Of a stretch of DNA of 64,000 bases, positions 2,340-60,072 are shown piece by piece. The stretch is from IMG/VR virus record IMGVR_UViG_3300027819_000006, one strand, 5' to 3'. Position 1 is the stretch's first letter. Each line of letters begins with the position of its first letter. Source of the DNA: a virus. Taxonomy: Duplodnaviria; Caudoviricetes. The translations under genes were made by a program, and so were the position numbers. The notes below the pieces were generated by a model. It saw only the letters and a list, made by a program, of their open reading frames with translations. It ran no database searches and was not told the origin of the DNA.

Positions 2340-3227
2340 TTATGCAAGAGCTAATTGTTTCATGAATATGTCGAATTCAACTTCTACAAATAACTCGTTA
2401 TGTTTGCCCATGTCTTTTATAATATAAACTTTATAGCCAGCTCTTTCTATTTCTTTTATTTTTATCTTTTCTCTACTCTGTACTTGTTCGACTGAATGTT
2501 TATCTGCTACTTTCTTATAATGCCAAATACCATTCCATAAAATTGCAGTTTTAATATCTTCTATTATTACATCTGCATCCCAACCATTAAAAATAGCTTC
2601 ATTATGCAGTACGTTTTTAAATTTTCTGCAACACAGTTCATAAAAATATATTTCATTCTTGCTTCTTCTTCTTAATCTCTGAGAATTAGCAGATTTTTTA
2701 CCAGCTTCTCTTGCTTTAGCTAAATATTCAGCAGAAGATCTTGTACATGTTTCACAGCAATATTTTTTATTTGAATCTATTCTTTTCAAAAACATTTTTT
2801 GACAATTGATGCTATTACATGTTACTTCTATTCTTTCTATTTTATGAATATTTACTATTCTGCCGCTTACATAACCTGATTTAATAGTATTTGATACTTT
2901 TTTTCGAGTTTCTTCACTGTGTGTTCGCGCATGCGAACATTTATCAGAACAGCATTTATGAGATAGAGCATTATCTCTAATTCTTATTTGAGTTTCGAAC
3001 CATTTGTTACATCTATCACATTTGTGAAAAACTTCAACCCATAAAATCTTTTTAGCTTTCGACTTTATACTTTTAGATAATTTCTGTAATGATTCTTCTG
3101 AAAACTTTCTTCCATAAAAGGGATTATTAGACCCTTTTAAATTTATTCCAGTGTTGCAGAATCTTTTGTGAGATGTTACTGCTCTTTTAGATTTAAAATA
3201 TCTATCGCATGTATCACATTTTATCAT
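2340..3227 (-). CDS. free-standing homing-type endonuclease (Zn finger, NUMOD3-like, Vsr/DUF559-like)
   Basis: CxxC..HxxxC N-terminus, GSNNPFYGRKFSEE repeat, SKNE..DADV..ILWNGIWHY C-terminus. Confidence 0.7.
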   Translation of the reverse strand: MIKCDTCDRYFKSKRAVTSHKRFCNTGINLKGSNNPFYGRKFSEESLQKLSKSIKSKAKKILWVEVFHKCDRCNKWFETQIRIRDNALSHKCCSDKCSHARTHSEETRKKVSNTIKSGYVSGRIVNIHKIERIEVTCNSINCQKMFLKRIDSNKKYCCETCTRSSAEYLAKAREAGKKSANSQRLRRRSKNEIYFYELCCRKFKNVLHNEAIFNGWDADVIIEDIKTAILWNGIWHYKKVADKHSVEQVQSREKIKIKEIERAGYKVYIIKDMGKHNELFVEVEFDIFMKQLALA

Positions 3228-5159: not shown

Positions 5160-5237
5160 TGGTGGGTCTGGCAGGAATTGCACCCGCATTTTTCTCCTTA
5201 AAAGGGAGCTACAAAAGCTAATTTTTGTTACAGACCC
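5160..5237 (-). tRNA. tRNA-Lys(TTT), atypical D-arm
   Basis: CTCC-CT-TTT-AA-GGAG arm, GGGTCTG/CAGACCC acceptor, CCA. Confidence 0.75.
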
Positions 5238-5821
5238 ATTAAAATCTTTAATTCATTTATGCATTTTAAAACATTTTCTTTAACATCTTGAGCTTCAAAT
5301 CTTATAACTTTCCAACCATTTTCTATACTAAATTTATCTCTTCTTTCATCTATTAATTTAACTTTTGGTAAATTATGTGTAGACCCATCAATTTCAACAT
5401 CAATTTTTAAATCTATAAAAGCAAAATCATAACAATATATACTATGCTGATAATTGTATATCCATCCTTCAATGTTTGAATATTCTAAAGCATTTTTGAA
5501 TATTTTTTCTGGATAACTCATTTTAGAGCAATGATTTAGTTTGTATGGAACTTTTTCTGGATGTTCCATTAAATATTTTATTCGATGTAAAGATAATTTG
5601 TTTCTAGTTTCTTCAGTGTGATGTCTGCCTGTCCAATATATTCTTGCTGATTCTGATCTTTTCTTCCTCAATATTTCACTTTTATCATTATCAAGACAAA
5701 ACATTACATGAGAAGTCATTTTTTGTGGTATATCAAAACAAAATTCTTTTTTACAATGTTTGCATACATATATTTTCATTATGATCCTCCAATTATATAA
5801 TAAATATAACTGTCGAATCAT
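5228..5821 (-). CDS. DUF559/Vsr-like free-standing endonuclease
   Basis: SYPE..YDFAF..VEIDGSTH..RRD..GWKVIRF; N-terminal Zn finger; likely start at Met 5776. Confidence 0.75.
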   Translation of the reverse strand: MIRQLYLLYNWRIIMKIYVCKHCKKEFCFDIPQKMTSHVMFCLDNDKSEILRKKRSESARIYWTGRHHTEETRNKLSLHRIKYLMEHPEKVPYKLNHCSKMSYPEKIFKNALEYSNIEGWIYNYQHSIYCYDFAFIDLKIDVEIDGSTHNLPKVKLIDERRDKFSIENGWKVIRFEAQDVKENVLKCINELKILMGL

Positions 5822-6099: not shown

Positions 6100-6293
6100 A
6101 AAGAGATAAAACTTGAATGTCTTATCTCTGTGAAAGCTGTACTGCATATAAGACATTCATTCTAAGTCACTGTAGGTCTATTTTCATGATTATAGCTTTT
6201 AAAACTATTAATAGACAAACTATCTGAACATTGCAGATAGTTATCTGATAATAAGTTATGTCTTTGCTGTATGGTCATATGATTAATCTCTTT
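6100..6293 (-). ncRNA. putative multibranched structured RNA
   Basis: 11-bp and 9-bp perfect hairpins, 8-bp closing stem, no ORF. Confidence 0.4.
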
Positions 6294-6336
6294 AGTTGTT
6301 GCTAATATAAATATATCTTAATCATAGCAAAATGCA

Positions 6337-6993
6337 TTAAAAATCAGCAGTCTGTTCTTTGTTTGCCCAAGTATTTGTTGCTATATACTGTATCCTCTTT
6401 TCATTGACAATCTTAACTGCTTCTTCTTTACTTTTAGCCCAGATTGTACAGTATAGCACATGCTCATCTTGCAACAGACTATTTTTGAAATTAGAACTGT
6501 CATCAGAATTAAATAGATAAGGATAGAATCTTTCTTTCTTTTCAAACCATTCACATCTAGGGTCGTAGTTTTTGTCTCCATGGTTCAAATCTTCTACTGG
6601 ATCCTGGCTATAGTCTGACTCAACAATAGAATCACCATTTTCTCTCATATATACTACATAAGTTTTGTAGCCATTATTTATGAATGTCAGAGCTTTGTTT
6701 ATGTTGTCTATTCTGTTGTTCAGTTTAAATGATTCTGTAGAATATTCGCAATCTTGTTGTTCTACTAATCTATTTAATTTTTCTTTGTGATCATCTGTGA
6801 AAACTCCAATTGTCTGCATTCCTGAATATTCACCTTCATATAGAACATGAACAGTTTCTTCATTTTTCATAGATAAAATGAATCTTTCTAATAGTTCTAT
6901 ATTAACTATACCTACTAAATTCATTAATCTTCTTAGCAGATCTTGTTGTTCATAATTCAGATCATATTTTAGAACCAACTCTAATGTTTTCAT
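6337..6993 (-). CDS. hypothetical protein
   Basis: 218-aa ORF, translationally coupled. Confidence 0.7.
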   Translation of the reverse strand: MKTLELVLKYDLNYEQQDLLRRLMNLVGIVNIELLERFILSMKNEETVHVLYEGEYSGMQTIGVFTDDHKEKLNRLVEQQDCEYSTESFKLNNRIDNINKALTFINNGYKTYVVYMRENGDSIVESDYSQDPVEDLNHGDKNYDPRCEWFEKKERFYPYLFNSDDSSNFKNSLLQDEHVLYCTIWAKSKEEAVKIVNEKRIQYIATNTWANKEQTADF

Positions 6994-22797: not shown

Positions 22798-24111
22798 TTA
22801 ATATGTTTTACCAAAACTTGTAACAAACGTAAAAAAGTCATTAATGTTTACTGCTTTGTCATCATTAAAATCTCCACGAAGATCTGAATCAGACCAGTAT
22901 TCTTGAAAAATCCAAAAGTCTTGCAGTGTTACAACTCCATCTGCATCAAGATCTGGAATTGGTGCTGCAACTTTCAAACTTTCTTTAACATCTGTAAACT
23001 TGCCTACAAGAATATTTGGAAGTTTAGTATTTGCATTCTTTCCATTTACATATAGAATATTTCTCATTTCTAAACTATTTAGGGGTTCTCTTCCCAATGA
23101 TTTTCTTGCAGAACTTATATTTGTTGCTATAGCTCCTGCAAATGCTCCTGCAACAGAGGTTCCTCCAAAACTACTTGTATACCATCTATTTTTATTTGTA
23201 CTATTTACAAGATCTCCTCTACCACAAGTTGTGATATCTACTCCTGGACAGCATATATCAACCCTTGAACCATATGAAGTAATACCAGAAGGGCCTATAT
23301 AATCATCTTTTATATAAGCTGCCGCAACAAAAATAGCACCAGAATCTCTAAAATTTCTATCAAATTTTCTTCCAAATTTTAGATCATCTAAATCTGTATT
23401 TGTATTCCCGACTGGTTCTATTACAATTATTCCTTTATCAATACAATATTTTATTCCATCATATACATAATCTGCATATTCAACTGGAACATGTTCATTA
23501 TTAAATTGTAAAGCACATTCAAAAAATATTACATCACCTTTACTTAATTTATCTCCTGCAGTTAATAAAGAATCCAATAAATTATATGTGCTAGCAAAGC
23601 TTATTTCTGCATCTTGACACAACCCATTTATGCCAAATTTATTATTTTGTGCAGCTAATATCCCAAGAACTTCCGTACCATGATCTGTATAGCTGTCTCC
23701 ATCTATCATAGGTCCATTTATAAAACCAACATGTTTCCATATTAAATCTTCATGTAAAAAATTACAATTACCATCTATTATACAGACTTTAATTCCAGAA
23801 CCAGATAAATCTTTTCTCCATAGAGGATAATTCAAAGATTTGATTATTTGTGCCCAATAAGAAGTTAAATCTGGAGTTACATCATTCTCTTTCAAGTCCA
23901 TGATTACTGCTGTACTAACTTTTGTTGGTTCTTCATGATAGCTATCTATATATTGTGAATTTTTTGTAATTTGATCTAAAGAATCTACTGAAAAATAACA
24001 TTTTAGACTATCAGAAACATTTCTATGCTCATATGGAAAATAGAAATCCTCTGATTTTAATTTTAGTATCAATTCTTTTGTATATTGTTTTAACTTTCCT
24101 ATATAGCGCAT
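22798..24111 (-). CDS. subtilisin-like S8 peptidase with C-terminal dockerin/EF-hand-like repeat
   Basis: IIDG, DHGTEVLG, GN oxyanion, GGTSVAG; DLDADGVVTLQDF and DFNDDKAVNINDF. Confidence 0.88.
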   Translation of the reverse strand: MRYIGKLKQYTKELILKLKSEDFYFPYEHRNVSDSLKCYFSVDSLDQITKNSQYIDSYHEEPTKVSTAVIMDLKENDVTPDLTSYWAQIIKSLNYPLWRKDLSGSGIKVCIIDGNCNFLHEDLIWKHVGFINGPMIDGDSYTDHGTEVLGILAAQNNKFGINGLCQDAEISFASTYNLLDSLLTAGDKLSKGDVIFFECALQFNNEHVPVEYADYVYDGIKYCIDKGIIVIEPVGNTNTDLDDLKFGRKFDRNFRDSGAIFVAAAYIKDDYIGPSGITSYGSRVDICCPGVDITTCGRGDLVNSTNKNRWYTSSFGGTSVAGAFAGAIATNISSARKSLGREPLNSLEMRNILYVNGKNANTKLPNILVGKFTDVKESLKVAAPIPDLDADGVVTLQDFWIFQEYWSDSDLRGDFNDDKAVNINDFFTFVTSFGKTY

Positions 24112-24297
24112 TTAATTTCTCTATAATGTTTTGTTTTCTAGTGCTAATTGTAATTCTGTTAAAAACAAGTCAGACACACATGCAATCTGACATAGCAAGA
24201 TTCATTTTCGAGATGTGAAATTTCTACTGCATCTCTTTTAAGTATATTTCTGCCAAGAGTTCCTTGAATGAATTTCTTGCAAACATCACAAATGTAT

Positions 24298-24657
24298 TTA
24301 GTTTCTTTCATCTGCTGTTTTTCTATTTAGCAATTTTACTTTACTTGGATGAGATAGTTTAAAATCTTCTTCTATATCTTTTTCTACATCTTCTCTATAG
24401 CCAAAATAACCTTTCAGATATCTTTTGCATCTAGCATTGAATTCTATTTCATCATTTTCTTGTAAATTTAGTTTAGCAAACCCTTTTGTATATGAGAACC
24501 ATAGATGATCAGTTAAAATGTTACCTTCAGCATCTTTTACATCTTTCAGAAGTACAGTCTTTTCTGGTCCTCTATAGCCATTTTTAAGTCCAAATCTAGA
24601 AAATGTAGCTGTGAATTTTAATCTTTCTTCTTCTATTTTTTCTAATTGTTCTCTCAT
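24298..24657 (-). CDS. hypothetical protein
   Basis: 119-aa ORF, OB-fold-like pattern. Confidence 0.65.
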   Translation of the reverse strand: MREQLEKIEEERLKFTATFSRFGLKNGYRGPEKTVLLKDVKDAEGNILTDHLWFSYTKGFAKLNLQENDEIEFNARCKRYLKGYFGYREDVEKDIEEDFKLSHPSKVKLLNRKTADERN

Positions 24658-24664
24658 TTAAAAA

Positions 24665-25870
24665 CTAAATAAACTCCCAATGTTTTGTTTCTTGTCGAGC
24701 TTTAGGCATTTCTATATTTAATAGATTGTTTTCCCAATTCTGTTTTTGTTCTGAATCTAATTGGTCATATTCTAACTTTAGATTCCAAATACTCTTACAA
24801 CTTTCGTGATTCTTGCATAGCGCAGAGCATCCTGAAAATTTTTCTTTTTCTTCTATTAAATGCATAACTTTCATTCTATTTTCGACATCATTCCAAATAT
24901 CTATAAAACTCCTCTTATAAACATTGCCATATGAATACTTCAGATGCCCACGAGTATTAGGACACACAAAAATTTCTCCTTGAGCACCTATACATGGAGT
25001 TAACTGACTACCATAGCATTTCTTATAGTGTCGACCAAAGTGAATAGGATCATCTATTAAGTCATTCAACTTATATTCGTTGATCTGAAATTTGTCTCCT
25101 AATATTTCTTTTGCTTGCTTTAATAGTGGTTTTATATCAGTTTCCCAGAATTCTACTTTTCTTTGAGTTTCTCCTTCTTTTTCTACACTGATTATTTCTG
25201 GCTTATATTGACAATAATCTACATCATAATTTTTAAACATGTTAGCAAAATCAATTATTTCAGTATAATTGTCAGGAGTTATAACAAATCCAGTACCTAT
25301 TACTGTTTTGCTATTTATTCGCTTTTTAGTTTCTATTAATTTAGACAGATTAGATAGCATTTTATTCCAATCTGTATTCTTGTTAGTAACTCTAATTCTA
25401 TTATATGTTTCTTCTGTTCCTGAATCTATTGAAAATCTGATCCATTCCATATATTTGCACATAGATTCAAATAGATCAAATTTATCTAGCATTACACCTG
25501 CTGTAAATATACCCATTTTAATGTCAGAATTTTGTCCAATATATTCTAGAACGGGTTTAAATGCGGGTGAAATTGTCGATTCTCCACCCCCTGTGAAGTT
25601 TGTGCTGCGTACTCCAATGCTTATAAGATCTTTTGCTATTTCTAATGCTTTTTCTTTTTGCATTATAGATCTGTCAAATGTTTCAGAATTCTTATATTTA
25701 TCGAAATGAATATGCGCTGACAGGCAGAAGAAACACGAGTGCATACAGCTATTTGACAAGTCCCACTCTATAAGCACTGGAGGTGGATGATTTCCTTTTA
25801 TTAGCTCGATTGTTCTATCTATATTAGCTATTATTTTTTGCTGAGGAGAGAAGATTTTTAAATTTTTCAT
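24665..25870 (-). CDS. radical SAM/SPASM protein
   Basis: CMHSCFFC, FTGGGE, C-terminal Cys cluster with YGNV..SFIDIWN. Confidence 0.92.
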   Translation of the reverse strand: MKNLKIFSPQQKIIANIDRTIELIKGNHPPPVLIEWDLSNSCMHSCFFCLSAHIHFDKYKNSETFDRSIMQKEKALEIAKDLISIGVRSTNFTGGGESTISPAFKPVLEYIGQNSDIKMGIFTAGVMLDKFDLFESMCKYMEWIRFSIDSGTEETYNRIRVTNKNTDWNKMLSNLSKLIETKKRINSKTVIGTGFVITPDNYTEIIDFANMFKNYDVDYCQYKPEIISVEKEGETQRKVEFWETDIKPLLKQAKEILGDKFQINEYKLNDLIDDPIHFGRHYKKCYGSQLTPCIGAQGEIFVCPNTRGHLKYSYGNVYKRSFIDIWNDVENRMKVMHLIEEKEKFSGCSALCKNHESCKSIWNLKLEYDQLDSEQKQNWENNLLNIEMPKARQETKHWEFI

Positions 25871-26855
25871 ATTAAATTCAATTCTTTCATTTTGCTATTA
25901 TCCCATATCTCTATTGGAACATCTATATTGTTTTTAGCAAAAATGAGTTTATTTTTTGATTTTTCATCCATGTATCCTTTTACTTCTATTATTTTTGTAA
26001 GTAAATTATTTTCGAATATAAAGAAATCTCCTCTATAATGATTGTTTTTATCTTGCACTACATTCATATATTCGTATTTCCATACTATATTATTATCATC
26101 TAAATAGCAACTTTTAGCTCCCAAGACGATCTCATCCAAATATCATTATAATATCCACCTTTGCCAATGCCTGCATTTTTATATGCTGGCTCGCCATAAT
26201 GATGATGATTTTCACCTCTCAAATGATCATTACAATGCTGTTCCCACATTTCTAAAGCTTTTTCTCTACCATATTTATCTGTCCAAATATCCAATATAGA
26301 TATACCATACATAGGATTTCCTTCTCCTACATACAGTATCTTATTCCTTTCACTAGTTTTTATAGATATTGCTTTTAATCTATCATCTGTATCTTTAGTC
26401 AATCCTTTATTCCAATTTGGACTTATTATATTTGAGCAAGACATGCAATATAATTCATTCCTACCTATCTCTTTATAGCAAAAAATACATCTACCTTTGC
26501 AGTCTTTGCATATATAAGTATTATTGTTCCATGACAATTTATTTCCACAATACATGCAAAGTTTATCTATAGTGGGAACATGTCTGCATTCTGGGCACGC
26601 ATCATAATCATATTTTATTGTTAAATAATGTAATACTTTATTACAAAATCTGCATCTTTTTCTATCATTGTCTACACACTCACAGCATCTAGTTCGCTCT
26701 TTTGAAGAATTATTACCTAATTTATTATTACAACTTTCACATCTTCTAATTATAATTAATTTTGATTTCTCCAATAAACAATGTTTGCAAACTCCATGGC
26801 TATTTTTATTACCTAATCTATTACTGCACCCTTCTTCTTTACAAAATCTTATCAC
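25867..26855 (-). pseudogene. frameshifted Cys-rich homing-type PD-(D/E)XK endonuclease
   Basis: 26100-26855 ends WMRSSWELKVA; 25867-26139 continues YLDDNNIVWKYE..GDFFI..IIEVKG in another frame. Confidence 0.75.
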
Positions 26856-26874
26856 TTTCTCTTCTCCATAAATA

Positions 26875-26963
26875 GAAATAGCTTATAGGTGTCTGAAAAA
26901 TACAAATTACTGTACTTTTTCCTATAAGCTATTTCATTATTTATAGCTTGTATTTTTCAGACA
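26875..26963 (-). repeat. interleaved double inverted repeat (A-B-A'-B'), copy 1
   Basis: 15-bp IR 26875-26889/26921-26935 and 16-bp IR 26890-26905/26948-26963, both perfect. Confidence 0.9.
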
Positions 26964-27050
26964 ATATAAATATATCTATTATAGAAGAAAAGACATTAAA
27001 AACTAATAATTTCTCCTTTTATTAAATCATGAATACAGATTTCATATCTT

Positions 27051-27845
27051 TTAAAGTTGTTGATTACTGTGATATCCGCTTAAATGATCTACATAAAAAT
27101 CAAAATTATTTACACTTTTCAAACATGTTATATTTTCCATATCAAATAAATTATGCCCAGCTATATGTTCTCCTGGCTGCATACTAGAAAATATATATGG
27201 TACTTTTACAAATAGCTCTCTGTGACATAAATGTGCACTTCCATAAGCATTGTCTTTTGTAGTGCATTTATAGAATTTGTTATTGTGTTCATATAGTTGC
27301 ATCTCTTCATCTATATCTAAATGATTACTAAATATATACTTGTTATCATTTTCTTTGAATTTTCCTTTATAATCTACTACTTGTTTAGCTGGTGAATTAT
27401 ATTTTATTAATCTTGCTTCTATTTTATCTATTGGTAATTGTTCTAATCTCTGTGGAGAAAAATAGATATTTGAATCAGTTCTCATTATAAGCTCTATATC
27501 ATCTTTAATGTTTATATAAACAATCTGATCTGCATCATTATAGAAGAAAAATTCATATTTACTAAAATCTGAATCTACCTTATTCTGTACATATTTTACT
27601 ATTTCGTGCCACAGATGATTTGGTGGAACTGTATGTTCATCAAATTTAGCTATATAAAAATCTAATTCAAGACTTGTAAGATCTTTGTAATCTATGTCAT
27701 TTTGTACACCTACAACTATATCTGAAAACTGTTTCATAGATTTATAAGTTTCTATAAAGTAATCTATAGATTTTTCTTTAGGCAGAACTCTTGTATGTGG
27801 ATAGTTATCTTGAGCATAGTATGGTAAAATAGATAGATATTTCAA
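27051..27845 (-). CDS. glycosyltransferase-like protein
   Basis: FFYNDADQ (DxD-like), YVDHLSG; glycan island context. Confidence 0.5.
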   Translation of the reverse strand: MKYLSILPYYAQDNYPHTRVLPKEKSIDYFIETYKSMKQFSDIVVGVQNDIDYKDLTSLELDFYIAKFDEHTVPPNHLWHEIVKYVQNKVDSDFSKYEFFFYNDADQIVYINIKDDIELIMRTDSNIYFSPQRLEQLPIDKIEARLIKYNSPAKQVVDYKGKFKENDNKYIFSNHLDIDEEMQLYEHNNKFYKCTTKDNAYGSAHLCHRELFVKVPYIFSSMQPGEHIAGHNLFDMENITCLKSVNNFDFYVDHLSGYHSNQQL

Positions 27846-28220
27846 TTACAGTCTTCCATCTTTAGAGAATCTTTTAGCTTCATCTTCTATTACTTGTTTG
27901 CTCCTATTATAATCTGAAATCATCATTTCATAATCCATAGAATAGTCATTCTTCAACTGATACAAATGATACAATTCATGTCTCAAACTTTCTATTACGC
28001 TTGACAAATATCTTCCATTAACTTTAACATAGATTTGAAATATTCCGTTTACATCTTTTTCTAACAACCCTGAAGCTTTTGTGTTTATATGATCAACTAA
28101 ATTTATGTCTAATTTGATACTTTGTATTTTCAATCTAGCTACTATATTCTTTACTGCTCTTTTAATGTCTTCAGTATAGCTTTTTACTTCTTCATTTTTT
28201 GACTTAATTCTCAGAATCAT
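27846..28220 (-). CDS. HExxH metallopeptidase-like small protein
   Basis: LRHELYH..E motif. Confidence 0.55.
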   Translation of the reverse strand: MILRIKSKNEEVKSYTEDIKRAVKNIVARLKIQSIKLDINLVDHINTKASGLLEKDVNGIFQIYVKVNGRYLSSVIESLRHELYHLYQLKNDYSMDYEMMISDYNRSKQVIEDEAKRFSKDGRL

Positions 28221-28957
28221 GTGTTCATCAGCTTTCTATAAATTTCTTTCATGTCATTGTTGCTATTAACTACATCTAAAATATCTTGATTATCTATTGA
28301 CTTTATGTTTTGACAGACATAGTAGTGATGCAGAGCTTTACCATTAGTTTTGACTCTTGTATATGGATTTTCTGTAAATGAATCTGCATGAGCATGAACA
28401 AATGGTCTGTAGAAAACTATCTTAAAATACATCTGGTTCAAAAATGCTTCGAAATATTTTGGAATGAACAGACCAGGGTAGACAAAAGCATGTTGATGTC
28501 CTTCATAACCAAATTGATGATCAAAATCAGGGATAGAAATATGAACATATCCACCATCTATGCATATATTCTTTATATTAATTAAAGCATGATAAGGCGA
28601 AGATACATGCTCTAGTACTTCATAGATCATTACAAATTCAAATTTATCATACAGTTCAGATTTCTTATCTATTGTATCTTCTACGATATCTAATTTAAAG
28701 AAGTCATCTATTTCTTCTAAACCTTGCAGCTCTGCAAATATTTTTATGCTTTCATCTGAAACATCTGAAGCTGTAACATGATTGTCATATTTTTGTTTTA
28801 TTTCTTTTGCTGTATGTCCGAAACCAGAACCTATTTCTAAAACTTTTTTGTGATGAGGAATGAGCTCTGATGGTAGCTCAAACTGTGTCCAATATTGTGT
28901 TATAAATTTTTCTACTCCTCCCAATAAAGAACTACCATACACATCATGAGCATTCAA
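28217..28957 (-). CDS. class I SAM-dependent methyltransferase
   Basis: VLEIGSGFG, SDVS, YEVLEHV, GGYVHISIP. Confidence 0.9.
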   Translation of the reverse strand: MNAHDVYGSSLLGGVEKFITQYWTQFELPSELIPHHKKVLEIGSGFGHTAKEIKQKYDNHVTASDVSDESIKIFAELQGLEEIDDFFKLDIVEDTIDKKSELYDKFEFVMIYEVLEHVSSPYHALINIKNICIDGGYVHISIPDFDHQFGYEGHQHAFVYPGLFIPKYFEAFLNQMYFKIVFYRPFVHAHADSFTENPYTRVKTNGKALHHYYVCQNIKSIDNQDILDVVNSNNDMKEIYRKLMNT

Positions 28958-29324: not shown

Positions 29325-30186
29325 TTATATTAATGATAGTTCTTTCATTTTTTCACCATCCCATACTTCTACAATACAGTGCTCTAGTATTTCTTTTAAT
29401 AATAAAACTTTGAGCATATTTTCCATAGTAACATATCCTTTTACTTCAATTATTTTTATAAGTTCTTTCTTGTTATTATAAATGAAAAAATCTGGTAAGT
29501 ATGAAACATTGTTCCATAAAATATATCTTTTTTCTTCATACTTCCATATTATATTATTGTCGTCTAAATATTTTGCTACTTTTGCTTCCCATGTAGATCT
29601 AAAACATATTTTTTTATATCTAGTTTTTATACCTCTCCCTATTTTGGAACTTAATTTTATAAAACCATTTCTGAAACCATTTTTTCTTGTCTCAGATATC
29701 TTATCTCTTGTTTCTTTACTTACTTCTTTTCCAAACATTGGATTATTTTCGCCTTTGAACTCTTCTCCTTTTCCATATCTTGGATTATTTATTCCTCTGT
29801 AGTGATCATTTAAGTATTGTTCATACATTTCTTCTGCTCTTTCTTGTCCATAATTATCTATCCAAACATCTTTTAAACTTCTATTATATCGAGGATTATT
29901 TTCGCCCTTTAATGATCCATTATCTCTTATTGTTTTAGAAGCTTTTAAAGATATATTTTTGTATATTTCTTTAACTTCGTCTTTATTTCTATTTTTCGTC
30001 CAATGTTCTATTTCTCCACTATCTATTTTTGCTTTTCTAAAACCATTCGATAATTTAGCATTTGGAAATTTTATTTTATATCTTTAATGTCATGTTGTGC
30101 TTTTTAAGATGTGATGCAGTTATAAAAGAAAAAAGCTTATACTCTGTTTTATCTTCTATACATTGTAAGCAATGTATTTTATCCAA
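29325..30186 (-). pseudogene. homing-type NUMOD3 + PD-(D/E)XK endonuclease, frameshift near 30080
   Basis: ORF 29325-29828 extends in frame upstream; Zn-finger N-terminus from TTG 30186 in another frame; RSTWE..YLPDFFI..IIEVKG. Confidence 0.7.
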
Positions 30187-30273
30187 TTTATTCTCCAATA
30201 AAAATATTGTCAAACTATATGTTTAATAGATTTTTGATATCTATTAGCGCTCTGTAATAAATTTATGTTAGTA

Positions 30274-32509: not shown

Positions 32510-33694
32510 TTAATTTTCTTTGACAGAGAGATTATAGACTCCTCTGTGCAGAATGTTTAGAGCAGCATTGAAATCTGCATCTAAACTTAGACAGCAATTC
32601 AGACATAAAAATTGTTCATTCTTCCTATTTTTTTTATCTCTGAATCCACATGTAGAACAAGTTTGAGATGTATAGAAAGAAGAAACTTTCTTCAATTCTA
32701 TACCCTGTTCTTGACACAGCATTTCAAATTTTGAAATAACACTTGGATAAGACCAATATTGCAACTTACTATTCATTTTTTTGCTATATTTTGATTTATG
32801 CTTTACTTGTTGTAAATCTTCCAAGATGACAGTAGAAACATTTTTTAAATCAATGGAGTTGCAAATTTCGTTGATTTTATTGTTTTTGAAAGTAAGATAT
32901 TGTTTATAGTTTTTAGAGCCTCTCTTCATATTTGATAGTATAGTATACATTTGTTTCATTTCTTGACCATAGACATCATTATTTGAAGAAACTATAAGTT
33001 TATTGTAACCTATATCAAAAGCAATGGAATCATGTTTTTCTTTCATCTCTACTTCTTTTTCATATGAAAATATAATATAAAAATTGTCATTTATTTTCTT
33101 TAACTGCACAGTTTTCTTTCTATTCCAGTCTTTATATTTTAAAGATTGCTTATGCCACTTTATTGGAAGATTAATTTGAATTGCTTTCTTTTTATCAGAA
33201 TAAAAATGAGGCAATTTCAGTCCTATAAACTCATTAAAATGAATAGAAGAATTTTCATAGCTGAGTAATCTGTCATCAATATTAATAGAAATATTCTTAA
33301 TGTCTATTTTGCAAATTTTTATAGCATCTTTCAATTTCAAATCTTTAAATCTTTTGTTCAGAAATTTCAGCTGTCTATTTCTTTTGATAAAGTATTTGTA
33401 GCACTTCTTATATTTTTTATATCTTTTATCTAGACAGTATTCTATATTAGATCTGACAATCTCAGAAGCTTGTTTATAGACAATTTGTCTCCACTGAGAA
33501 TGATGAATTTTGTTAATAGGAAGAATCTTAGAAGACAAATTCTTATTTAATTCTAATTTTTGAGATAAAATAAGCTCTATATAAAATTTGACGTCTATTT
33601 CATAATCTTCAAATAGTTGTTCTAAATATTTAATTTTATTTAAATTAGAAAATTTTAAAATATGTCTACTACTTCTTATCAAGATCAATCTCAC
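32510..33694 (-). mobile_element. tnpB: IS200/IS605-family TnpB RNA-guided endonuclease, no TnpA seen
   Basis: RuvC FDIG, LEDL and DAD.NAA.NI; Zn ribbon SQTCSTCG..CLNC. Confidence 0.88.
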
Positions 33695-33702
33695 AATAAA
33701 AA

Positions 33703-33777
33703 TGCCAAGTATTGAACCTCAAATAGACTATGTCTATAAAGATACTTGGCAAATAGATAACATCTATTTGAGGTTCA
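33703..33777 (-). repeat. interleaved double inverted repeat, copy 2
   Basis: 10-bp IR 33703-33712/33742-33751 and 15-bp IR 33713-33727/33763-33777. Confidence 0.85.
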
Positions 33778-35109: not shown

Positions 35110-36045
35110 TTACACCTTTTTATTTTTCAACATTTTTCTCAATGTTCTTACCAACTGCTTCCTTGCTTGATTCATTCTTTTGGTCTTTAAATCTCTTCTC
35201 TTCCTACGTATTGGCTTTAATCCTTGAGCAATCCTATCTTCATTGATCTTCTTTCTATTTTCTTCTTTGTCAATTTTCTTCTGTTCTCTGTTCTGTATAT
35301 CAATTAAAACAAGCTTATTTCTCTGTTCTGTAATATAGTCTAATAAATGATTTGATAAATAAGCAGATTTGCAAATTCCAGGAGTATTGCCAAGAAATTC
35401 AGAAGTTTTTGTAACGATCAGTTTTATTTCCTTGCTCAAATCTACTTTTTTAAGAGGAAGCTCTTTATCTTTGATAAAATCTTCATATATGCAGAAAGCT
35501 GTGTAGTTTGCTGCTAATGTTCGAAAATCTTTTGTAGTGAATATTTTGCCTATATTCTTCTTTAAATACTTCTTTATGCTTTTATCTGTGATATTTAGCC
35601 ATAAATCTGTTGATGATTCTTCATAAAATTTATGACCATATTCAATTAAAATTTTATCATCAGAAGTTATAAATTGGCTTACAACTTTTTTTCCTACAAA
35701 ATCTAGTATGATATGATTGTCATAAAATAGAATATGTTCCTTTTTCAGAGTAGAAGCTCCAAAAGTTTGAACAAATTCGCCTTCATGTCCTTTAACTACC
35801 GCTGTATAACCTTCAGCTGAGCCCTCATTTCCCACACGAATTCCGGTTTTGCAGAGTAGATATATAGCATATGCTTCTTTTGATCCAGTTTTAATATCTT
35901 CTACAATCTCGGGTTCAATTTTTGTCCAAACTTCAGCAAGCTTGTTTACTCTATTAAATTTAGAAGCTTTCTTATCCTTCTGCTTAATTCTATTGCTTTT
36001 AGAGAAAAATTCTACCTCTCTACCATTGAATATCAGTTTTGACAT
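35110..36045 (-). CDS. DNA topoisomerase IB
   Basis: TGIRVGNE, FGASTL, FVGKK, KDFRT, LGNTPGICKSAY (catalytic Tyr). Confidence 0.92.
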   Translation of the reverse strand: MSKLIFNGREVEFFSKSNRIKQKDKKASKFNRVNKLAEVWTKIEPEIVEDIKTGSKEAYAIYLLCKTGIRVGNEGSAEGYTAVVKGHEGEFVQTFGASTLKKEHILFYDNHIILDFVGKKVVSQFITSDDKILIEYGHKFYEESSTDLWLNITDKSIKKYLKKNIGKIFTTKDFRTLAANYTAFCIYEDFIKDKELPLKKVDLSKEIKLIVTKTSEFLGNTPGICKSAYLSNHLLDYITEQRNKLVLIDIQNREQKKIDKEENRKKINEDRIAQGLKPIRRKRRDLKTKRMNQARKQLVRTLRKMLKNKKV

Positions 36046-36084
36046 TTTTCTCTCTATTTAATAATAACACATTGTTTATGATTA

Positions 36085-36118
36085 AATATAAACAAATATC
36101 ATACAAATGTAAACAACT
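36085..36118 (-). promoter_or_regulatory. conserved phage promoter upstream of topoisomerase IB
   Basis: AGTTGTTTACATTTG...TTTGTTTATATT. Confidence 0.75.
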
Positions 36119-37247
36119 TTTTTTCATCTTTTAATAAATCTTCTTTAAACAAAATATAGAATATTTTTGATTCTTTATCGTATTTTTCAATAAAAATTTG
36201 CATTTTCTCTTTAGATTCTGGTCTCATCCAGCCTTTAACTTCTTCTATTCTTATCAAATTATTATTTTCATCATAGATAAAGAAATCAGGAGTATAAGTT
36301 GTATTTTCTAATTTATAAGTTATTTCTTCATATTTCCAATTTGCAGATATAGAATCTAGAAATTGAGCTCTTTCCAGCTCATAGGTAGATTTCATCTTTA
36401 TTTCAGCATTGTTTCTATCTGCATAAACAACTCGATGCCACTTAGGAGATACTCCATACATAGGATTTCCAGAACCAGATCTATCTATAGACCATTTTTG
36501 TTTTTGTTCGTCTGAAAAAATATATCCATACATGCTATTTTTGCTACCAGTCATAGGATTAACACGATGATTTTCTTTATGTTTATTAATTAATTTTAAT
36601 AATTTATTTTCTGCAATTTCCTCTCCATATTTAATTACCCAAGCATCAAAAAAAGACATTCCAAACATTGGGTTTTTGTCTCCTTTTAATGATTCAGAAA
36701 TGTTTCTCTTATGAGAATCTGAAAGTTTTTTATCTTGCCAAACACCAGGCCTACCCATTAAAGATTTAGATATTTTTTCTTTTACTCCAGGCTTATGTAC
36801 AGGATTTCTATCTCCAAGTTTACAACAAACTCTGCACATATTTAAATCTGCAGAAACTACATTAGTGCATCCTTCTTCAACACAATAGAAAGTTTTAGAA
36901 GCTTTACATTCATCACAAATAAAAATTTTTCTATGACCTTTAAGCATTTTATCTCCACATACTGTACATCTACAAGTATTTTTCTCAGACATATAAAATT
37001 GATGTTTTGAACATCTACTACCTTCATTTTTTACTTTATTGTTGCAATTTTCTATTAAGCATTTATATTCTATTTTATTTCTGCAATCTCCACAAATACC
37101 AATTTTATTAGTTCCGCCTATAGGATTTATTTTACAAGTTTTGCATATTAATGGAGGTTTTCCACTCTTACATCTTTTACAGATATTACTTTTATAATTA
37201 ACATTAAGTTTTTTAGGGCACGATATACAGTATCTATCTTCTTGCAT
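36099..37247 (-). CDS. Cys-rich NUMOD3 + PD-(D/E)XK homing-type endonuclease
   Basis: many CxxC pairs, GDKNPMFG repeats, KSTYE..YTPDFFIY..EEVKGW. Confidence 0.8.
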   Translation of the reverse strand: MQEDRYCISCPKKLNVNYKSNICKRCKSGKPPLICKTCKINPIGGTNKIGICGDCRNKIEYKCLIENCNNKVKNEGSRCSKHQFYMSEKNTCRCTVCGDKMLKGHRKIFICDECKASKTFYCVEEGCTNVVSADLNMCRVCCKLGDRNPVHKPGVKEKISKSLMGRPGVWQDKKLSDSHKRNISESLKGDKNPMFGMSFFDAWVIKYGEEIAENKLLKLINKHKENHRVNPMTGSKNSMYGYIFSDEQKQKWSIDRSGSGNPMYGVSPKWHRVVYADRNNAEIKMKSTYELERAQFLDSISANWKYEEITYKLENTTYTPDFFIYDENNNLIRIEEVKGWMRPESKEKMQIFIEKYDKESKIFYILFKEDLLKDEKKLFTFV

Positions 37248-37260
37248 TACCTCTCCAAAA

Positions 37261-37352
37261 AAAAATTGTCTATAGTAGCACCCTAATAGACTGAAGTCAG
37301 AAGGCTATAGACAATTTTTCAAATATATTTATGTTTTGTCTATTAGTGTGCT
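37261..37352 (-). repeat. interleaved double inverted repeat, copy 3
   Basis: 15-bp IR 37261-37275/37305-37319; 15-bp IR with one mismatch 37277-37291/37338-37352. Confidence 0.8.
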
Positions 37353-37603
37353 TATAATAAATATATTTGATCAAGAAATAAATGCATTTGACCTATCCCT
37401 GTCTCTGCCATTAGCAGATATCCATATCCCTCTTTTGAACCAGCTTCTATATCTTTAATTATCTTTGGTTCAATAGTTCCCCAGTCTCTAGCAATTTTTC
37501 CTACACGTACAAACTTTGCAATTTTCTTGTCTTTTTGCTTTATTCTACCATTTGGATCAGAGAAGAATACTGCTGGCCTATTTTCGTAAGTGAAGTTGAT
37601 CAT
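37352..37603 (-). pseudogene. truncated second topoisomerase IB N-terminus
   Basis: RIKQKDKK.KF.RV..IEP.I..DI..GSKE..TGI matches 35110-36045 and stops just before the catalytic Arg. Confidence 0.85.
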
Positions 37604-59109: not shown

Positions 59110-59973
59110 TTAGCAAATTATACGCCAAACTATATCTATTTCGTCTTCCCAGATGCGAATTAGTCTATAACCATTATCTTCAGCTATTCTATTTTTTCTA
59201 TTATCATTATCAATCTTTCCCTTTTGCCATTCATTTACAGGTCCATTAACATATATTCTAGGATTACAGTGATAATAGTTACCATCAACTTCTATTAACA
59301 TGTTATATTCTGGAATATAAAAATCAAAATAAGATTTATTTAAATAAAACTGACTCTTATACTCTATATTTAAACTATCTAAAATCTTAGCTATTTTTAT
59401 TTCAGGTTTACTTATTCTATATTTAAGACATTTTTCATTTCTATTTTTATTTCTTGCAATCCACATTTCTTCTGCTTTTTCAAGACCATGTTTTTCTATC
59501 CATATATCTTTAAGTGATTTACCATACATGGGATTTTTGCTTCCAGAAACATCTGCATGATTTTCTGACATACTAACAGTTGATTTTTTTATTCTTTCAT
59601 CAGTTTCTTTAGTTAAGCCTTTATTCCATGTTATTATAGATCCTTGTTCAAGCCTTTCTATTCGTGTTTCAGATATTTTATTACATGATTCGATAGAATG
59701 TTTTCTACCATACATGGGATTATTTTCACCCTTTGCTAAACCTTTTTCTATTCTAGTTTTAGATATTTTAGCTTTAGTTTCTTCAGATGCTTTTCTCCCT
59801 TTCAACTTTCCTGAATTTTTACATTTATGACATTTTCTATTCAGCCCAGTAACTTCGTTCAAGCAATTTGTCGCAGCACATTTATATTTGATATATTCTA
59901 TGCATTCTTGACATATTCCAGATTTATTTCTATTGCCTAATTCATTAATACCACAAATATAGCATAATAGCAT
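59110..59973 (-). CDS. NUMOD3 + DUF559/Vsr-like homing-type endonuclease
   Basis: GENNPMYGRKHS, SKPE..FDFYI..IEVDGNYYH..GYRLIRIWE. Confidence 0.85.
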   Translation of the reverse strand: MLLCYICGINELGNRNKSGICQECIEYIKYKCAATNCLNEVTGLNRKCHKCKNSGKLKGRKASEETKAKISKTRIEKGLAKGENNPMYGRKHSIESCNKISETRIERLEQGSIITWNKGLTKETDERIKKSTVSMSENHADVSGSKNPMYGKSLKDIWIEKHGLEKAEEMWIARNKNRNEKCLKYRISKPEIKIAKILDSLNIEYKSQFYLNKSYFDFYIPEYNMLIEVDGNYYHCNPRIYVNGPVNEWQKGKIDNDNRKNRIAEDNGYRLIRIWEDEIDIVWRIIC

Positions 59974-59990
59974 TATACATTCTCAAATAA

Positions 59991-60072
59991 AAAGACTTAC
60001 AGTGTGGATAAGAAATAATAGCAAAGCTATTTTCACTGTAAGTCTTTGTAAACTACTATTATTTCTTATCCA
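59991..60072 (-). repeat. interleaved double inverted repeat, copy 4
   Basis: 14-bp IR 59991-60004/60034-60047 and 17-bp IR 60005-60021/60056-60072, both perfect. Confidence 0.9.

Follow-up and report, generated by a model that had tools for sequence, protein, structure and literature searches.

Interleaved perfect inverted repeats before nuclease genes of a phage: candidate structured leaders acting at the RNA level

A genome that carries homing endonucleases or TnpB-type nucleases may be harmed by them and, to our knowledge, the ways in which phages restrain such enzymes are understood in detail only for T4 and a few of its relatives. In the T4 scheme, a hairpin hides the ribosome-binding site in transcripts that read through from upstream, and transcripts from the gene's own promoter lack the 5' arm of that hairpin; the scheme holds for I-TevI, I-TevII, I-TevIII, segB and Aeh1 mobE (PMC2988022). 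A different arrangement is seen in seg43(25) of Aeromonas phage 25, where a very stable hairpin is located just upstream of the ribosome-binding site without covering it (PMC2988022).

The locus considered here occupies positions 26875-26963 of a 64,000-nt stretch of viral DNA ('the window' throughout), with 27-34% G+C and 14 tRNA genes. All genes of the window lie on the minus strand, so that the directions of transcription and replication are not separable. No near match to the window was found among deposited phages; the sequencing runs that contain the stretch are groundwater metagenomes, with no RNA run among them. An Rfam scan of the whole window at the gathering score returned tRNAs only, with no family at the element, and a literature search gave no hit on interleaved inverted repeats of this kind. 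The reading preferred here, with moderate confidence, is that a mobile nuclease cassette has this element as its structured 5' leader, which would act as RNA and combine an outer clamp on translation with an inner, gating core.

Four elements of one shape and unrelated sequence

The original prediction described perfect 15- and 16-bp inverted repeats whose arms interleave and abut at 26889/26890, and a sequence check bears this out: the arms of both pairs (A and B, Table 1) are perfectly complementary, with spacers of 15 nt and 12 nt inside the element. The predicted closeness to the GTG at 26855 also stands, although the distance counted is 19 nt and not 20 nt. On the plus strand the order is A, B, 15-nt spacer, A', 12-nt spacer, B'; the arms are named here for the coding (minus) strand, on which the order reads B-A-B'-A'. 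Perfect interleaved pairs with both arms of at least 10 nt occur three times in the window and never in 30 second-order Markov shuffles, and abutting pairs with at most one mismatch and summed arms of at least 21 nt occur four times, against none or one weaker example per shuffle. Folding of the element region gives z = -4.7. The interleaved perfect repeats at 26875-26963 are real and beyond chance; no other copy of the A or B arm sequences is present within the 64-kb window, nor in IMG/VR or JGI metagenome contigs.

Table 1. Coordinates of the leader, its nuclease gene and the three further leaders in the window
Feature	Position	Strand	Remarks
Box ATGTCT, -35-like or activator-box-like	26991-26996	-	16 nt upstream of the -10-like hexamer
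Anti-start arm	26972-26996	-	promoter-region RNA, complementary to ribosome site and start codon
Conserved motif ATATATTTATAT	26964-26975	-	holds -10-like TATATT 26969-26974; ends 0 nt before B
Helix B 5' arm (B)	26948-26963	-	16 nt; own transcript of the cassette predicted to begin here
Spacer L1	26936-26947	-	12 nt; 26938-26946 pairs with 26866-26874 in state A (MFE)
Helix A 5' arm (A)	26921-26935	-	15 nt
Spacer L2	26906-26920	-	15 nt; 26910-26919 partly mimics B (MFE)
Helix B 3' arm (B')	26890-26905	-	perfect complement of B
Helix A 3' arm (A')	26875-26889	-	abuts B', no linker
Translation start region	26849-26874	-	U-rich UAUUUAU; Shine-Dalgarno GGAG 26864-26867; GTG 26853-26855
Nuclease gene, frame a	26100-26855	-	251 aa; Cys-rich zinc-ribbon-like N-terminus, GxxNPMYG motifs; TAG 26100-26102
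Frameshift, approximate site	26106-26107	-	one-base loss in Ala codon would account for it
Nuclease gene, frame b	25867-26142	-	91 open codons; PD-(D/E)XK-like domain, D...EVK
Second leader	59991-60072	-	arms 14 + 17 nt; before intact NUMOD3/Vsr-like nuclease 59110-59973
Third leader	37261-37370	-	arms 15 + 15 nt, one mismatch; before NUMOD3/PD-(D/E)XK-like nuclease 36099-37247
Fourth leader	33703-33777	-	arms 10 + 15 nt; before TnpB-like gene 32510-33694

A scan of the window for perfect inverted repeats, followed by inspection of the flanks, located four such elements, the arm sequences of which are unrelated and each of which lies directly 5' of a nuclease gene, encoding a Cys-rich endonuclease of NUMOD3/PD-(D/E)XK type (a putative assignment in this copy) in three cases and a TnpB in one. 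In all four, the coding strand presents the motif ATATATTTATWAT, the arms B and A, then B' adjoining A', a U-rich stretch and the start codon, in that order and always in the orientation of the gene. The spacing is similarly regular: the motif, in the form ATATATTTAT(W)AT, is followed after 0-1 nt by B (15-17 nt), L1 (8-18 nt; 8-12 nt in three copies and 18 nt in the third), A (10-15 nt), L2 (12-15 nt), a B'/A' gap of 0-1 nt, and 8-19 nt from A' to the start codon. The U-rich stretch after A' reads UAUUUAU in this copy and UUAUUU, nine U or UUUUUAUU in the others, and the motif is the sole sequence common to the four leaders. The third leader, with its core at 37261-37352, has a third interleaved helix (37319-37332 / 37357-37370). 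Helices A and B comprise 117 positions when summed over all four copies; one is a mismatch, the other 116 are Watson-Crick pairs, and G-U pairs are absent. One structural design, rather than one sequence, precedes at least three kinds of nuclease gene, which points to a general, transferable solution.

Other nuclease genes of the window do without the core. Two more paralogues have no leader, one of them overlapping both of its neighbours by 4 nt and the other, at 29325 to about 30040 (within 29325-30273), being decayed and showing no recognisable leader; in the decayed paralogue the C-terminal 167 aa are intact and the N-terminal zinc-ribbon part is scattered over other frames. The nuclease genes at 2340-3227 and 5228-5779 (Cys-rich or DUF559-type) carry the motif TATATTTATTAT 20-30 nt before the start and have a short leader without interleaved helices; the core is therefore dispensable, an optional add-on. 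The third cassette (in the region 35110-37603) lies between an 83-aa stub and an intact copy of a topoisomerase IB N-terminus, 51% identical, and homology of the stub stops at TGI (residue 70), 6 nt before the promoter box; promoter and leader therefore came in with the nuclease.

Beyond the window, no abutting pair with arms other than low-complexity sequence was found in approximately 800 kb of other phage DNA (26-45% G+C), which included 80 NUMOD3/Vsr-like nuclease loci taken from IMG/VR, 420 kb in all, together with one phage contig (97 kb) and one complete phage genome (288 kb, 30.6% G+C); this DNA gave weak pairs only (arms of 9-13 nt), and the clearest candidates inspected were AT-only. 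An alignment of the multiple nuclease paralogues is too divergent to seed a search. A further perfect inverted repeat in the window, of 20 bp (2204-2223 / 2283-2302), overlaps with its inner ends a tRNA-Ile(tat) called by ARAGORN at 2215-2289 and not reported by the Rfam tRNA model at the gathering score; the segment 2204-2302 may represent a tRNA-like element in which the closing stem is unusually long.

The frameshifted nuclease gene and its neighbours

That the downstream nuclease is frameshifted, as originally claimed, is borne out by its paralogues, homology to which goes on in the -1 frame beyond the stop of frame a at 26100-26102. Frame b is open for 91 codons, and none of 6332 off-frame windows of equal length is open, the chance of such a stretch being about 1e-5 to 1e-4; all 16 columns that do not vary between the paralogous nuclease domains are kept in it, D...EVK among them. 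This nuclease and its paralogues have the GxxNPMYG region and the D...EVK domain in common. Profile searches return a sub-threshold double zinc ribbon as the only Pfam match to the product of 26100-26855, and resolvase/endonuclease families of PHROGs for the shifted C-terminus (6e-6); NUMOD3 scores above the cut-off in three paralogues and the TnpB domain is recognised in the gene of the fourth leader, with Phage_endo_I and DUF1064 below the cut-off in paralogues. A PDB sequence search with the nuclease domain returned nothing meaningful.

Perfect repeats upstream of a broken gene had been taken to mean that selection acts on the element independently of the reading frame, or else that the frameshift is recent or an assembly error. 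The second of these is favoured by the 91 open codons, the retained catalytic motif and the retained invariant columns. An assembly error is unlikely, given that the break lies outside any long homopolymer and is reproduced in Logan contigs of two groundwater runs, which cover 25600-27300 at about 18x with zero differences, although these contigs probably rest on the reads already used in the source assembly, and the two runs seem to be a single data set deposited twice; a sediment run covers two short pieces only, reaching neither leader nor break. The frameshift is most likely real and recent, to judge from the reading frames and the contigs, and a recent frameshift is enough to explain an intact leader. 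Programmed frameshifting was considered and rejected, there being no slippery site at GCT ATT TAG. It is also possible that leader and promoter are selected apart from the nuclease, for the benefit of the downstream radical-SAM operon, since no promoter-like motif other than that of the cassette was seen ahead of the radical-SAM gene.

This radical-SAM/SPASM gene is the downstream neighbour of the nuclease, its ATG overlapping the nuclease stop in frame b, and the upstream neighbour is a 264-aa gene of no assigned family. Together, the radical-SAM/SPASM enzyme, a subtilase-like protease and a class I methyltransferase that flank the nuclease (22798-25870, 28217-28957) are reminiscent of a peptide- or base-modification cluster. 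The 264-aa gene has no relative in viral or metagenome contigs, the nuclease at 26100-26855 found no homologue but itself in a search of 5.8 billion proteins, and the nuclease of the third leader has no close relative in IMG/VR. One relative of the radical-SAM gene was found (L001; 48% identical), in a different gene context and without a nuclease; because the context differs, this locus was discarded as an empty allele. Searches of viral contigs, metagenome contigs and proteins found neither a nuclease-free nor an orthologous allele of the locus.

Promoter-like motif, proposed outer clamp and interleaved core

The exact core of the motif, ATATATTTAT, occurs nine times in the window against 2.5 expected, and a box of the form wTGyhTTTw starts exactly 22 nt before TATATT in the four leaders as well as at 6315 and 3265; its spelling is ATGTCT in this copy, ATGCAT in three others and TTGTCT before tnpB. 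The TATATT hexamer is common to the nuclease leaders and to the TTTACA-17-TATATT promoters of other genes, and the wTGyhTTTw box stands in the leaders where those promoters have TTTACA. The latter form a sigma-70-like class, TTGTTTAC(A/T)TTTG, about 12 nt, GTTTATATTTAA, equivalent to TTTACA-17-TATATT, which is found before at least six non-nuclease genes (36116, 19496, 6080, 4396, 3914 and 17673, minus strand). TATATT ends 5-7 nt before helix B and, counting 7-8 nt from the hexamer, transcription in every copy is predicted to start at a purine, which is base 1 or 2 of B (G at 26962 here). From this sequence pattern we infer that the leader motif works as a promoter. The T4 late promoter TATAAATA was rejected as a feature of the leader family, being present in L1 of this copy only and unenriched between genes.

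Two further observations concern the surroundings of such motifs. On the minus strand at 6100-6340, a box ATGCAT and TATATTTATAT at 6315 are followed by about 200 nt without a long reading frame, ending in two overlapping hairpins (6114-6159, 6102-6129) and a T-run, so that the appearance is that of an orphan leader or of a small RNA that carries a terminator/anti-terminator pair. Just upstream of the promoter box of the cassette, an orphan Shine-Dalgarno-like AAAGGAGAAAT at 27013-27023 (minus strand) stands 16 nt away from the nearest ATG; it may have served as ribosome site for a gene that the cassette displaced.

The outer layer of the proposed leader is a clamp. RNA reading through from upstream would carry the promoter region, which would pair with the Shine-Dalgarno sequence and start codon and shut them; transcripts from the cassette's own promoter would begin at the first or second base of B, lack the anti-start arm and so be translatable. 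The anti-start arm and 26849-26874 form a predicted duplex of -14.4 kcal/mol (RNAduplex), matched by 1.1% of genomic 45-mers and by 12 of 500 shuffles. For the four copies, the duplexes of the upstream 45 nt with the start region (from A' to past the start codon) are at -14.4, -19.7, -12.6 and -15.4 kcal/mol, and the fractions of genomic 45-mers that do as well are 0.011, 0.000, 0.036 and 0.002, significant for each copy; the clamp helices contain G-U pairs. In ensemble calculations with 80 nt of upstream RNA added, the mean unpaired probability of Shine-Dalgarno and start falls from 0.56 to 0.18 in this copy, and from 0.69 to 0.01 and from 0.59 to 0.15 in two others; accessibility in the tnpB copy, which has no clear Shine-Dalgarno sequence to score, is unchanged. 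A clamp by the upstream arm is supported by computation in all four copies.

The inner layer is the interleaved core. Stepwise folding predicts that B:B' forms once B' has been made in all four copies, and in this copy then flips to A, the completed leader favouring the A state (-33.6) over the B state (-24.2) by 9.4 kcal/mol. In the A state of this copy, A:A' gains the 9 bp between 26938-26946 and 26866-26874, reaching the GG of GGAG; positions 26910-26919 of L2 can pair with the first 10 nt of B' (two G-U pairs), and strand exchange could proceed by this route. In the other copies the two states are nearly balanced or B is favoured, and upstream RNA shifts the balance inconsistently. Masking of the ribosome site by state A was considered and rejected: predicted access is 0.56 in A and 0.46 in B, so that the state hardly alters it and a simple on/off mask is unsupported.

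Geometry constrains the core further. Because B' and A' abut, a coaxial stack of the helices needs L1 to span 25-31 bp, which by inference excludes coaxial stacking in the three copies with a short L1 (8-12 nt). Helices that cannot stack coaxially are either alternatives or parts of a strained side-by-side knot, any mutual exclusion of A and B being argued on geometric grounds. During transcription B:B' would form first, and in this copy the A state would then grow to about 34 bp, recruiting L1 and L2 and reaching the GG of the Shine-Dalgarno sequence; the core could limit how much nuclease is made, or serve as a slow gate, by way of refolding, processing or RNA stability.

Alternative readings and comparison with known systems

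The case for a cassette leader is that the same architecture stands before four nuclease genes, with none expected by chance. Action at the RNA level, on the sense strand, is favoured by the registration of the elements to the -10 hexamer, the ribosome site and the orientation of the gene, by the U-rich tail and by the G-U pairs of the clamp, and the leader family is most likely an RNA-level control on nuclease gene expression. Against this reading are the lack of a consistently favoured state, the lack of any G-U pair in 117 positions and the dispensability of the core. Perfect arms free of G-U are unusual for a structure selected purely as RNA, and fit templating at the DNA level equally well; such perfection suggests that one arm is copied from the other as template, or that both strands are constrained, and raises the question of how paired arms stay matched as the copies diverge completely. 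A tentative extension of the leader reading is that of a portable cis-regulatory module, in which helices made exclusive by topology begin at the 5' nucleotide and arms are kept complementary by self-templated copying; such copying with free drift would explain an identical architecture, the lack of sequence similarity and the lack of G-U pairs.

The geometry of the core also admits formation of both helices at once, as a compact side-by-side pseudoknot at the mRNA 5' end, constitutive and without switching, acting for example to protect the mRNA from decay or to hold a fixed spacing that favours closure of the clamp. The B'/A' gap of 0-1 nt, the position of B at the predicted 5' nucleotide, the lack of a consistent preference for A or B, and the independence of ribosome-site access from the state are all in keeping with this, and L1 of 8-18 nt and L2 of 12-15 nt should, on geometric grounds, suffice for a side-by-side arrangement. 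Each helix, however, makes about 1.4 turns, requiring threading or compensating loop crossings, and the stems are far longer than known pseudoknot stems, with an L1 too short for a coaxial stack; we consider the pseudoknot unlikely.

Less probable still is an attenuator, in which A:A' and the U-rich stretch would terminate transcription before the nuclease and B:B' would be the anti-terminator, trapping A in its loop. The presence of a U-rich sequence after A' in all four copies, and the extra upstream helix of the third copy, which would trap B in read-through RNA, suit such a device, and terminators are known inside or before endonuclease genes of the T4 family (PMC2988022). The structure itself argues otherwise: a terminator scan calls none at 26856-26975, the stem has 33% G+C, the A:A' loop is of 29-31 nt (31 here), the tail UAUUUAU is a weak U-stretch and is paired with L1 in the A state, and A and B, unlike the alternatives of classical attenuators, have no nucleotides in common.

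An action of the element as DNA, whether as a hairpin/cruciform or as an operator, in mobility, recombination or autorepression of the nuclease, is put on a par with the attenuator. Watson-Crick arms without G-U in 117 positions pair equally well on both strands, and one copy precedes a TnpB gene, the IS200/IS605 relatives of which use DNA hairpins at their ends. I-TevI binds an operator over its own promoter (PMC2988022). Yet the arms resemble nothing else in the window and have no partner resembling a homing site (an operator of that type was rejected, no leader showing similarity to nearby gene sequence), no transposase or recombinase is adjacent, and a shared binding protein is hard to reconcile with four unrelated arm pairs before three nuclease kinds; RNA-level action accounts more readily for the constant placing of the elements relative to the -10 hexamer, the ribosome site and the orientation of the gene, and the G-U pairs of the clamp point the same way.

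Template-switch (quasipalindrome) mutations are classic in T4. That the repeats are functionless by-products of such mutation in an AT-rich genome is very improbable. Perfect arms and full divergence between copies are the expected product of templated copying, but the same topology, arm lengths, abutment and position are seen at four nuclease genes and are absent from the remainder of the 64 kb, and no comparable abutting pair occurs in the approximately 800 kb of other phage DNA.

Taken as the structured leader of a nuclease cassette, the element is closest to the T4 scheme in its outer layer. Here too a selfish nuclease gene has a promoter-like motif immediately upstream, the RNA before the predicted transcript start is complementary to the Shine-Dalgarno sequence and start codon, and predicted access depends on where the transcript originates. 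It differs in the leader of about 90 nt, with two long perfect interleaved helices, that lies between the clamp arms, and in its promoter motif, ATATATTTATWAT here and TATAAATA in T4 late promoters; the likeness is, for this locus, a computed one. With seg43(25) it has in common that the gene is a free-standing endonuclease gene and that a stable structure stops a few bases short of its Shine-Dalgarno sequence, leaving this unmasked, the structure being a single hairpin there and two interleaved ones here.

The core invites comparison with two further classes of RNA. Like leader attenuators and riboswitch platforms, it has two helices that probably do not coexist, a U-rich stretch after the 3' helix and a 5' helix that forms first; unlike classical attenuators, in which the alternatives overlap in nucleotides, any exclusion here would be by topology, and no ligand, leader peptide or protein partner is evident. 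Its strand order (stem 1, stem 2, stem 1', stem 2') is that of H-type pseudoknots, from which it departs in its stem length (10-17 bp, the usual being 3-10), in the direct junction of stem 1' with stem 2', and in a long linker at the point where the classical fold lacks one. If the core turns out to work as a topological switch, or as a shield of the 5' end, RNA control would gain a new principle and engineered expression control a compact part. On the modelling presented here, the clamp is a variant of the known T4 mechanism, and the interleaved core is what makes these leaders unusual.
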